Origin: Octopus vulgaris | Taxonomy: Eukaryota | Reading direction: 5' to 3' | NCBI GenBank assembly: GCA_951406725.2 | Contig: OX597818.1 | Coordinates: forward strand, 92,132,001 to 92,196,000 | DNA: 64,000 bases | Shown: piece after piece, positions 9,231-61,406 of the stretch | Numbering within the stretch: the first letter of the stretch is position 1 | Layout of the letters: the number at the start of each line of letters is the position of its first letter | Notes under the pieces: model-generated | What the model was told of the DNA's origin: nothing | What the model saw: the letters and a program-made list of their open reading frames with translations, nothing else | Database searches by the model: none | Made by a program: the position numbers and the translations under genes

Positions 9231-9268
9231 CCTTTTACGTTTCGAGCCTACGCTCTTCTACAGAAAGG
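9231..9268 (-). ncRNA. Minimal type I hammerhead-like motif with A6U core variant, in a PLE-like terminus (9141-9345)
   Basis: Reverse complement: ccuuu CUGUAGA a gagc-guag-gcuc GAAA cg UA aaagg. Confidence 0.55.
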
Positions 9269-9550
9269 GACACAGAAAAAAAACAAGGAGAGAAACTTGG
9301 AGAGGAAAAAACGTGTGTAGTGGCTAACGATCTATCATGGCGACTATATGTATATATATATATATGCAAATGTCCACGTATGCCAACTTACCACACAGAC
9401 TTTTGACACGCAGAAGTAAGCACCTTACAGATACGCGTATACAAAAACGTTTACAGGTTCACACCACCCAAACATATAATATATATTGTTTATTTCTTGG
9501 CTACTTAGAGTGTAAATTACAATATTGACAATTAGGAGAATGAAGAATTC

Positions 9551-9724
9551 GAACATTCAAAGTTTGTTTATTTCTTGTTAGTTTATTCATAGTAACTGTC
9601 CGTCACGTGTTTCGATCGCATTAACTGCATATTGTTGCATGTATTCAGTTAATGCGATCGAAACACGTATCGGACTAGTATTGTGAAGAAGCTAACTCGA
9701 AATAAACATAGAGCTTGAATGTTC
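9551..9724. repeat. Imperfect palindrome of about 175 bp (fold-back/MITE-like)
   Basis: Perfect core acgtgtttcgatcgcattaactg / cagttaatgcgatcgaaacacgt, extending out to gaacattcaa / ttgaatgttc. Confidence 0.8.
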
Positions 9725-9759
9725 ACCTTTTTCAGTCTCTTTATCATATTATTTTATTC

Positions 9760-10231
9760 TTTTATTTGCTTCAGTCATTTGACTGCGGCCATGCTGGAGC
9801 CCCCGCCTTTAGTCGAGCAAATCAACCCCAGGACTTATTCTTTGTAAGCCTAGTATTCATTCTAACGGTCTCTTTTGCCGAACCGCTAACTTACGGTGAC
9901 ATAAACACACCAGCATAGGTTGTCAAGCGATGTTGGGGGAACAAACACAGACACACGAACATATACACATACATACATACATACATACATACATACATAC
10001 ATACATACATACATACATGCATACATACATACATACTCACATACATACATACATACATACATACATACATACATACATACATACATACATACATACATAC
10101 AGTTTCCATCTACCAAATCCTCTCACAAGGCTTGGTCGACCCGAGGCTATAGTAGAAGGCACTTACCGAAGGCGCCTCGTAGTGCGACTGAACCCGGAAC
10201 CATGTGGTTAGTAAGCAAGCTACTTACCACA
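9760..10231 (-). mobile_element. SINE family A with expanded internal (TACA)n
   Basis: Family A body and tail; the head is cut after tacttaccacac. Confidence 0.8.
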
Positions 10232-10324
10232 CTATATATATATAGTCAAAATGTGACCGCGTGTGTACCGTTGGCGATTTCCTTTTCCTCCGTCTTCCCT
10301 TCTTTGGTTCTTTCCTTTTCTTAT

Positions 10325-10359
10325 GTTTCTTACGAAGAGCTCCGCTCGAAACGTTAAAC
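10325..10359 (+). ncRNA. Mutated minimal hammerhead in a PLE-like terminus (10245-10461)
   Basis: guuu CUUACGA a gagc-ucc-gcuc GAAA cg UU aaac; the G5U change should inactivate it. A truncated sister copy lies at 20457-20535. Confidence 0.55.
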
Positions 10360-57909: not shown

Positions 57910-58018
57910 ACTACGCTGTGGGTACGAACGCGGAATCAATGATAAGAAATTTGCCTCCTAACAATATGATTCCGCGTTCGTACCCACAGCGTAGTGTTAG
58001 GAGGCAAATTTCTTATCA
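57910..58018. repeat. Interleaved inverted repeats A-B-A'-B'
   Basis: A 57910-57938 pairs with A' 57967-57995 (29 bp) and B 57940-57963 pairs with B' 57995-58018 (24 bp); both are perfect. Confidence 0.9.
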
Positions 58019-58210
58019 CATTGCCACGTACATATATATATATATATATATATATATATATATATATATATATATATATATATATATATATATATATATA
58101 TATATATATATATATATATATATATATATACATACATGCATACATACATACATACATACATACATACATACATACATACATACATACATACATACATACA
58201 TACATACATA

Positions 58211-58860
58211 CAGGGTGGCCATAAAGTTACGCATCATCATGCAATATGTGAAATCGCTAACATTCTCTTTTTTAATCCCTTTTCACAAGTGTCGATATTA
58301 CTCACAAATCAATCCTCATTGGATGGAGGCAGATAATCATCAGGAGGGGGGGCAAGGTATTGGTGTGGTATGGGATATGGCACAACCAAGTAATTCGGTC
58401 AGTATCCGCACATGCTTGGCAACAAAATGATGCTTCATGTATATTTATTTGGAAGTGGAAATCCTGTCTGGTTTCAGCAGGATGGGGATCTGTCCCACTG
58501 TGCATTACAGGTTCGTGATTTTCTGAATGAACATTTTCCAGAGAGATGGCTCGAGCATCGCGGGCCAATAGAAAGAGCACTACAGTTAGCAAACTTAACT
58601 CACATGAACTATTTCTTCTGGGGCTACATTAAATCCTTTGTGTGTTCTGAAAATATTCGTGACCAAGAAAATCCTCTTGAAGCGTGCCAATAAGTCAACG
58701 GCAATGAAGAGCTATTTGAGAGGGTCCTTCGCAATTTCATATTCTGAATGAACACTTGTTTAAAGCTACGTGGCCAACATTTGTAATGGATTACCTACTT
58801 CATTACTAATAAAACATATTTGATATCACCCATGGGACGTGACTTTGTGGACATCGTCTG
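58211..58860 (+). mobile_element. Tc1/mariner-superfamily remnant (maT/rosa-like)
   Basis: Starts with TA plus cagggtggcc; ORF 58412-58693 reads WFQQDG..H....VRDFLNEHFPERW...YFFWGYIKSFV. Confidence 0.75.
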
Positions 58861-60684
58861 TATATATATATATATATATATATATATATATATATATATA
58901 TATATATATATATATATATAACCTCGCTGTTTTACGTTCACGTGATAATATATTATTTCATCTAATGCTGTAAACAATTCTTCCAGTCCACTACCTTGGA
59001 CTAGCACTGTATATATTAACACCGAAAAAATGAAAAGTAAATTTGTTCCCTTTGAGTTTGAACTCAGAACGCTGATTATTGAATATGAATACCGTAAATC
59101 ATTTTATCCTTAACGACTATACCACTTAACGACTGTGAAGTTTATATATTATCTCGCATATAATCCAAGACATTGCTACAATCCACTTCGCTATAAATAG
59201 GTTTCATTGTGGATACCGTCAACTAAGACGGATACATTCCACTTGACTCTGCTTAAGTACGATAGAATGATGATGATGGGGAGGATGAGGTTGAGGATGA
59301 GAATGAGGATGATAGCTGGGTCTCTGGATATATGTCTTTACTAAGAACTGAACATCATCACCATCAGTATCATCATCCATCTTTCCTGCTTGCATGAGTC
59401 AGACGGAATTCGTTGAGGCTGATTTTCTATGAACGGAGGCCAATGTTACCAGTTTCCAAACAAGGCAATGTTTCCCTTCAGCTATACATGTCTTCACAGA
59501 AAATTGAGAATAAACAACGCCGTCTGTATGGCGGTGAGTCTTGTTTACAACTGCCGCGCGATGTCATAAAGAAACGCAAACACACATACGCGTGTACATT
59601 ATTATAATTTGCAAATCACCAAACGTAATAAGTTTTTATGCTTTTTCGCTATTTGAATTTAAAATCAGACCAGATTAATGTATCGTTAACATCTCACCAC
59701 GATCACTAAAATATGTGCTCTATCTACGTAATGGTTTCAGTTTAATTTCACTATATTAAACACGCTTCTCACATTACATGCCTTGTGCTTTGTGCTTAAG
59801 TGGGAATTAATATACAAGCGAGAGCATACTCCTAACACAAATAAACAGAATAAATGTGAAATGTGTCAGACCAGCATCGCTTACAGCAGATCTCAACAAG
59901 ATTTTTTGTAAAAATGCTGACGTTGTTTCACAAGATATTCGCATTAATTTAGGTTGTAAACAAAAATATGGTGGAATTGGAGTGAGGTCAAAGATAAATA
60001 GAACTTTATCTTAAACATTGAAGAATTATGTATCAATTTTCTGCAAATGAGGATTGTCACAAATAAACACATACGCACAATTAGACAGTCTTGTGAGCTC
60101 GCCTAAAATGTGTGTGTGTGTGTGCATGTATGTGTACGTGCGTGTACACGTATGTTATACATTATATATACACGAGTATGGACAGACAGACAAGCAGGCA
60201 GACAATCAATCAGTCAGACAGTCAGACAGACAGACAGACAGACAGATAGATAGACACATACATACATACATACATACATAGACAGACAGAGAGATAGATA
60301 GATAGATAGATAGATAGATAGATAGATAGATAGATAGATAGATAGATAGATAGATAGATAGATAGATAGACAGACAAATAGACAGATAAACAGATAGATA
60401 GATAGATAGATAGATAGATAGATAGATAGATAGATAGATAGATAGATAGATAGATAGATAGATAGATATTTCACGCCAGTGCGACCATCAAACGTGAAAC
60501 ACGAGTCGCAAGACTGTTAACACTATCGTATGAGGGAAAAGCTATGTGGTGATTTGACCGTCTAAAAATAGCAACCAAATCACACTTGTATTTTTGACCT
60601 TTAAAAATGTGATGGACACTTTGATTTATAATGTTATGATGTATTGTTTGAAAATAACTGACTAAGTGGTCCTGACTGGTTTGC

Positions 60685-61012
60685 CTTTACTCTTTTACTT
60701 GTTTCAGTCATTTGACTCCGGTCATGCTGGAGCACCGCCTTTAGTCGAAAAAATCGACCCCAGGACTTGTTCTTTGTAAGCCTAGTACTTATTCTATCGG
60801 CCTCTTTAGCCGAACCGTTAAGTTACGGGTACTAAACACACCAGCATCGGTTGTCAAGCGATCCATTCACAATCCGTCTATCAAATCCACTCACAAGGCT
60901 TTGGCGGGCCCGAGGCTATAGTAGAGGACACTGGCCCAAGGTACCACGCAATGGAACTGAACCCGGAACTATGTGGTTGGTAAGCAAGTTACTTACCACA
61001 GAGCCACTCCTG
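60685..61012 (-). mobile_element. SINE family A lacking the internal microsatellite
   Basis: Tail, body and head match family A. Confidence 0.8.
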
Positions 61013-61360
61013 GGCCTGCAGGAGTGGCTTTGGTCATAAATCTAGATCAAGCTTGATGACACATACACATACACACGAATACATGCACATTCATACACAC
61101 ATGCATACACACACATACAATGATATTGACAGAGCCATACAGATACTCACAACCGTAGACAGAATCACACTCACATACACACTAACACACAGGCACACAT
61201 ACACACACACACACACACACACACACACACACACACACACAGACCGTACTCGTATATTTTGGGGGATTTTCTGCGAGAAAATATTTTTGTAGCAACTTCT
61301 AGAGATATTATTTACGTTATTTACAATTGACGGATATTTGTCCTCATCTTGTTTGTTCTT

Positions 61361-61406
61361 AACACAACGTTTCGGCTGATATACCCTCCAGTCTTCATCA
61401 GGTGTC
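61361..61406 (-). ncRNA. Minimal type I hammerhead (canonical core) in an (AAT)n-anchored repeat (about 61295-61455)
   Basis: Reverse complement: gacac CUGAUGA a gacug-gaggguauau-cagcc GAAA cg UU guguu; same family as 14765-14905. Confidence 0.7.

Follow-up and report, generated by a model that had tools for sequence, protein, structure and literature searches.

Hammerhead motifs of Penelope-like elements in an Octopus vulgaris genome window, including a repeat family with a natural G3:C8 core pair

The 64,000-nt window of the Octopus vulgaris genome analyzed here (C5:92132001-92196000; 2.8 Gb in 227 contigs) contains a set of short repeats whose hammerhead ribozyme motifs are very probably those of Penelope-like elements (PLEs). 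In one of these repeat families the core pair formed by positions 3 and 8 is G3:C8, and comparison of its copies suggests that this form is a functional, selected variant (probability about 0.65). The motif set is neither a new ribozyme class nor a new system. Minimal type I hammerheads have been described in the pseudo-long terminal repeats of PLEs (Cervera and de la Pena 2014, PMC4209133; this and all other publications are cited from the portions that entered the comparison), where two copies pair via a palindromic stem III, cut slowly after position 17, and cleave weakly as dimers (PMC4209133, PMC6765202). While the G3:C8 swap was previously a laboratory rescue and U3:A8 has already been published, a natural family-wide G3:C8 case behind a PLE open reading frame (ORF) is new among the literature compared, and would round out the case for covariation at positions 3 and 8.

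The window was searched with a relaxed hammerhead descriptor in which positions 3 and 8 were left free. At a score cut-off of 11, seven matches were obtained, whereas 30 local dinucleotide shuffles gave 0.57 on average. These matches represent five families, as 43986 and 45917 are the arms of one inverted duplication and 14785 and 61361 belong to one family. The core N3-UGAN-N8-A and GAAA-U-H, together with stems I and II, is present in the motifs at 35591, 41629, 14785, 31970 and 43986. A first-pass annotation of this DNA had proposed at least eight families with a type I layout; beyond these five, the motifs it placed at 38446 and 50009 fail on their stems, and an eighth motif at 9231, whose core it did not describe, carries U6. 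The cores it named are all present, namely CUGAUGA at 14785 (+), 61361 (-), 31970 (-), 38451 (-) and 39629 (+), CUGAAGA at 43986 (-) and 45917 (+), UUGAAAA at 41629 (+), 50013 (+) and 47832 (-), and GUGAACA at 35591 (-). Each of the pairs 38446/39625, 43986/45917 and 47832/50013 consists of the two arms of a local inverted duplication, and the members of a pair are not independent copies. The proposed short palindromic stem III is found across the set with the exception of 38446, where stem III has an odd length.

The features of the G3:C8 family in the window are as follows.
35591..35639, - strand: G3:C8 minimal type I hammerhead motif with private stem I and stem II mismatches (descriptor and family alignment)
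35451..35803, no strand assigned: 3' terminal repeat belonging to the G3:C8 family of PLEs (sequence comparison)
35674-35732, + strand: inverted, truncated copy with the core deleted, inside 35451..35803 (sequence comparison)
19103..19252, no strand assigned: G3:C8-family fragment without the core (self-BLAST, 89% to 35451-35601)

In the motif at 35591, G3 is position 35633 and C8 is position 35628, and the predicted cut lies between 35597 and 35596. Thirty loci of this family were sampled as those scoring best out of 1,880 candidates, the window copy being one of them, and 28 carry G3:C8. In the family majority, stem I is 7 bp and stem II 5 bp long, an extra G stands between positions 9 and 10.1, the palindrome spans 6 nt, position 17 is U, and all remaining core bases and the three helices are perfect; the stem mismatches of the window copy are private to that copy. 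Genome-wide, 4,395 of 4,735 pattern matches carry G3:C8 and the reversed-pattern controls gave none. The remaining matches differ at position 3 only (88), at position 8 only (243) or at both (9). The pair is kept across loop II subfamilies, and 443 genomic copies exactly match a 47-nt stretch. Among the singles, C8-to-G changes (41 in the first 100 of 243, by hand count) are much more frequent than G3-to-C changes (8 of 88), and they are seen in combination with several loop II types.

The G3:C8 motif has also been compared with contigs from four public runs (organisms A, B, C and D by their labels), using a 251-base query with 99 bases from the element. Positions 3 and 8 show no variants at 5% or above in these contigs, from which RNA ends and strand are not readable; the sites that do vary are CpGs, loop II and a single position of stem I, where U-A becomes U-G.

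The link between this family and a PLE ORF is provided by C16:14746700-14750400, where a contiguous ORF piece (YVDD, thumb, CxxxCxxC and GIY-YIG) is followed by a microsatellite-rich untranslated region (UTR) of about 900 nt and then by the G3:C8 motif. The GIY-YIG domain scores 23 bits in Pfam with a cut-off of 22.6. This ORF end and the motif recur at C5:15026700-15030300. Long copies of the 3' UTR of the element cluster on contig C16 (40 scored), a distribution possibly biased by the use of a C16-derived query. About 15 nt 5' of stem I, the family has a branch-point-like CUAAC, a pyrimidine tract and an AG (35650-35680 region of the window), and many copies start at this stretch, which could mark the end of an intron similar to that of Drosophila Penelope.

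The U3:A8 families offer a second departure from the canonical core, and their features in the window are listed here.
41629..41668, + strand: U3:A8 hammerhead motif with a 7-bp stem I, a 2-bp stem II and the palindrome ACCGGU, in a PLE 3' repeat
41302..41504, + strand: PLE ORF end (GIY-YIG region) preceding the motif at 41629 (91-96% to the family ORF by tblastn)
40129..41329, - strand: inverted broken copy of the 41629-family PLE ORF (tblastn)
39948..39983, - strand: inverted decayed copy of the 41629 motif
50013..50054, + strand: U3:A8 hammerhead-like motif with weak stems (50009 in the first-pass annotation)
47832..47873, - strand: opposite arm of the inverted duplication with the 50009 motif

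The core UUGAAAA was found in all 30 fetched loci of the 41629 family, and U3:A8 is present in its 1,015 genome matches, with subfamilies differing only in loop II and at position 17. A sister of this family altered at both positions 3 and 8 gave no pattern matches in the genome. The variant cores are thus the consensus of their families, as the counts for G3:C8 and U3:A8 indicate, rather than private mutations of the window copies. The 41629 motif follows an ORF encoding reverse transcriptase (RT) and GIY-YIG domains with the same linker type as the G3:C8 element, and its copies are often arranged as inverted pairs and sometimes as same-strand pairs 4 kb apart. The core UUGAAAA is likewise found in all 30 loci shown for the 50009 family, and at two of them (L066 and L088) a related PLE ORF (39-43% identity) lies 1.2-1.8 kb upstream. 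An additional U3:A8 family with the palindrome ACGCGU was observed outside the window (L137, L150). Related ORFs are known for two of the three U3:A8 families, and these two may share one change. The CX2-5CxxC linker before the C-terminal GIY-YIG domain is seen in translations of loci L181 and L049, which score at and under the Pfam GIY-YIG cut-off, respectively.

An ORF link (RT and GIY-YIG on the same strand, with the motif in the terminal repeat) is thus available for the 35591, 41629 and 50009 families, and to this extent the proposal of PLE terminal-repeat hammerheads stands. The right-arm copy of the 43986 family has just an unclassified ORF fragment, and no upstream ORF was found in the examined copies of the 14785, 38446, 31970 and 9231 families (within 2.5 kb for 14785, 38446 and 9231). 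ORFs beside some copies of the 35591 and 38446 families were assigned to adjacent 41629-family insertions and rejected as parts of their own elements.

The state of the 3:8 pair was also examined in 60 evenly spaced 10-kb stretches of the genome (600 kb). Twenty matches score at least 11 in this sample, compared to about 0.8 in six shuffles, and 16 of them have A6. Watson-Crick pairs at 3:8 are present in 14 of these 16 (six C:G, five U:A, three G:C and no A:U), representing about seven families by the analysts' grouping (four C:G, two U:A and one G:C). Furthermore, a Watson-Crick 3:8 pair and an intact remainder of the core are common to all families that have both an ORF link and young copies. 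Across families, Watson-Crick pairs at 3:8 predominate. Families with A3:U8 were sought and rejected, with 61 pattern matches compared to 103 in controls for one stem III class, and a recurring A3:U8 candidate (L209-L218) proved to be a junction with (TA)n in which stem I is absent.

These data suggest a mechanism in which minimal type I hammerheads would operate from the 3' terminal repeats of several PLE families. The G3:C8 swap of the 35591 family likely preserves the core pair, and two such motifs could cut RNA weakly as a dimer. According to published work, hammerhead cores tolerate both C3G/G8C and U3:A8. In a repeat-ORF-repeat transcript, two motifs would join through stem III into a double hammerhead, which would cut after position 17 and trim the element RNA; motif pairs on opposite strands would be unable to dimerise from one transcript. 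Selection would act on a few master elements only, and the genomic copies, which number in the thousands and stand alone or inverted, would be inert insertion products undergoing neutral decay.

Several results weigh against the reading of G3:C8 as a functional, selected variant. Covariation is absent within the G3:C8 family because the doubles are close to the number expected from independent decay (9 compared to 4.9) and just three of the nine pair. The G3:C8 family represents one event, and a double change would be Watson-Crick by chance about one time in three. The folding energy of the motif dimer is not lower than that of two monomers (-25.4 and -27.6 kcal/mol, respectively), in a model that takes no account of the hammerhead core and so does not decide between monomer and dimer. 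The 50009 motif fails the descriptor because stem I has just two clean pairs and stem II is closed by a C-A mismatch; the 38446 motif fails it because stem II is closed by an A-A mismatch and stem III has an odd length. Both weaknesses are family-wide. A study of a PLE hammerhead found cleavage dispensable for insertion in vitro, with no reads ending at the cut site (PMC11167929). An old repeat family (L187-L208, L143 and L074:2190) is 73-82% alike and shares stems I and II with the G3:C8 family, with a non-palindromic stem III. Its 23 copies comprise 12 U3-G8, five C3-A8, four C3:G8 (two of them picked by a C3:G8 pattern), one U3:A8 and one U-U, such that the Watson-Crick pair is missing in 18 of 23, and the five C3-A8 copies fall within a single six-member group, whose support of 83/92 is not starred. 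Two suggestive pattern matches had pointed to a sister of the G3:C8 family with a clean C3:G8 pair; this was rejected, as 20 more copies were mixed and mostly unpaired.

A further point against it is the A6U family, which has two copies in the window.
9232..9267, - strand: A6U hammerhead-like motif with the core CUGUAGA, within a repeat of about 270 nt (9096-9365)
33795..33830, + strand: second copy of the A6U family, with the core CUGUGGA

All 29 motifs parsed from this family (27 of 30 loci) have U6, as do 14,711 of its 15,231 genome matches, and position 7 takes all four bases; the other families retain A6. The A6U change would be expected to cripple cutting because changes in the CUGA turn lower activity (PMC9901934) and because a natural A6C variant has weak activity in Mg2+ and prefers Mn2+ (PMC3088659, PMC7151607). 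The 15 copies selected by their 5' part all begin at one identical base after (TA)n, and an upstream ORF is absent in all 15 copies examined; one locus (L101) carries three copies. A short, non-autonomous derivative whose core is attenuated is the likely nature of this family. Relatives with the same stem II, a G-C for C-G exchange in stem I and A6 were observed at 10325-10359 (+) in the window, where the core is decayed, and at L148 and L159.

The main rival to catalysis is that the fold is kept mainly as a structural signal for RT or endonuclease binding or positioning, in which case catalysis would be dispensable and the cores would drift while the stems and palindrome stay. This explanation, which we consider unlikely but well short of negligible, is consistent with the intact stems of the A6U family despite U6 and a free position 7, with the U3-G8 and C3-A8 groups of the old related family, with the weak stems of 50009, with the G3-G8 state of about 40% of the position-8 singles counted in the G3:C8 family and with the dispensability of cleavage for insertion in vitro (PMC11167929). 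It does not account as readily for the ORF-linked families with young copies, all of which keep a Watson-Crick 3:8 pair and the remaining core, and the ORF-less A6U family may merely ride on other elements. In the second alternative, an amplified master with a dead ribozyme carried G3 and C8 by coincidence. Only a single G3:C8 family has been found: clustering of 154 descriptor matches from all sequence compared gave one G:C cluster, and a search for other G3:C8 families with an ACGYGU stem III was rejected at five matches compared to three in controls. In addition, copy number is a sign of amplification and not of selection. Such a founder effect is nevertheless improbable, as the family majority shows no defect in the other core bases or in the three helices, across loop II subfamilies and in four organisms. 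Finally, chance look-alikes in AT-rich repeats are very improbable and largely refuted for 35591, 41629, 14785 and 43986 by the shuffles, the position behind PLE ORFs and the agreement with the PLE consensus in print, in which the extra base between 9 and 10.1 is also found, despite the poor fit of 50009 and 38446 and the absence of Rfam hammerheads among the best 150 of 413 window matches and, at the gathering threshold, in four tested loci. Minimal PLE hammerheads are expected to fit the Rfam hammerhead models poorly.

Functional selection of G3:C8 consequently remains the favored reading, although the step from double changes to selection for catalysis, as put forward in the first-pass annotation, is partly supported and not established. 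The independent swaps are few (one G3:C8 family and three U3:A8 families, two of these with related ORFs), the copies descend from few masters, the unpaired old relative was amplified and the A6U family is abundant. The annotation was correct that searches restricted to CUGANGA would overlook thousands of copies; motif searches need positions 3 and 8 both free. Large genome repertoires and U3:A8 in PLE hammerheads (about 1,300 Schistosoma mansoni matches) are already in print (PMC4209133), as are the extra base, the palindromes and the opposite-strand pairs.

The motifs can be further placed by comparison with known systems. Similar to the hammerheads of PMC4209133, they are located in 3' repeats and have a palindromic stem III, an extra base between 9 and 10.1 and a G10.1-C11.1 pair, and they occur as many families per genome, mostly as solo copies, with opposite-strand pairs and U3:A8; a U3-G8 example is given there for Saccoglossus (Fig S3). 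In contrast, neither G3:C8 nor U6 is found in the 56 representatives aligned in that work, while both are family-wide here. Natural U3:A8 covariation was reported by Perreault et al. 2011 (PMC3088659), and natural changes at position 6 are known as A6C (PMC3088659, PMC7151607); A6C is a single phage motif (PMC7151607), whereas A6U is present in about 15,000 copies. The text of PMC3088659 yielded no G3:C8, its figure 5 and Dataset S1 lying outside the comparison, and none was found in the portions compared of PMC10085705, PMC6765202 and PMC6155905. Indeed, no natural G3:C8 or A6U family was found in the full-text literature searched, although figures and datasets beyond it (e.g. Perreault 2011) may hold G3:C8. 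The same swap rescues engineered C3G/G8C ribozymes (PMC9901934, PMC11167929, PMC3884650), where it is the sole rescuing double within the CUGA turn (PMC9901934) and partly rescues a PLE hammerhead whose cleavage required protein (PMC11167929); those are laboratory mutants, while the swap described here is natural and fixed. The elements resemble Neptune/Nematis-type PLEs (Craig et al. 2021, PMC8557442) in their C-terminal GIY-YIG domain, CX2-5CxxC linker, inverted 5'-truncated copies and (TA)n insertion. The A6U family can be compared to non-long terminal repeat retrozymes, which are short non-autonomous hammerhead repeats (PMC7229834; bioRxiv 10.64898/2026.07.22.740005); retrozymes, however, form tandem arrays with canonical hammerheads, whereas the copies at the loci examined here, viewed without a genome-wide tandem scan, are solo or inverted.

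The role of hammerheads in PLEs could be approached with the G3:C8 family, the A6U family and the unpaired subfamilies as matched variants supplied by nature. It is possible, if doubtful, that one genome holds a natural core series in which an active G3:C8 form (thousands of copies, several organisms) exists alongside about 15,000 A6U copies that either cut under special circumstances (element protein, dimer or Mn2+) or spread without catalysis. If true, this series would make it possible to test directly whether Penelope-like transposition depends on cutting.

The canonical motifs of the window complete the set.
14785..14830, + strand: minimal canonical C3:G8 motif with the core CUGAUGA, of an abundant family (descriptor)
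61361..61406, - strand: second copy of the 14785 family (descriptor)
31970..32019, - strand: canonical C3:G8 motif with the core CUGAUGA and a 12-nt palindrome (descriptor)
38451..38488, - strand: C3:G8 motif with the core CUGAUGA and a weak stem II, on the left-hand arm of an inverted duplication (38446 in the first-pass annotation)
39629..39666, + strand: right-arm copy of the 38446 motif
43986..44079, - strand: canonical C3:G8 motif with the core CUGAAGA and long stems, on the left-hand arm of a 2.1-kb inverted duplication
45917..46010, + strand: right-arm copy of the 43986 motif, with the core CUGAAGA

A second copy of the 31970 motif was not found in the approximately 1 Mb compared, no genome-wide search having been made. 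The copy at 45917 lies 588 nt downstream of the ORF fragment at 44988-45323, which has no Pfam match. Microsatellites and inverted duplications are abundant in the window. Large, near-perfect inverted duplications at 43934-46062, 47652-50255 and 38413-39704 bear hammerhead repeats at their ends, as described for PLE insertions. Fragments of a further PLE RT are present at about 4655-5600 (-), with 27-28% identity to the 41629-family ORF. Among the other features of the window, a 451-codon open frame at 61623-62975 (+) resembles the end of a non-LTR retrotransposon ORF, and two frames at about 27300-28060 (-) resemble a mariner-type transposase.

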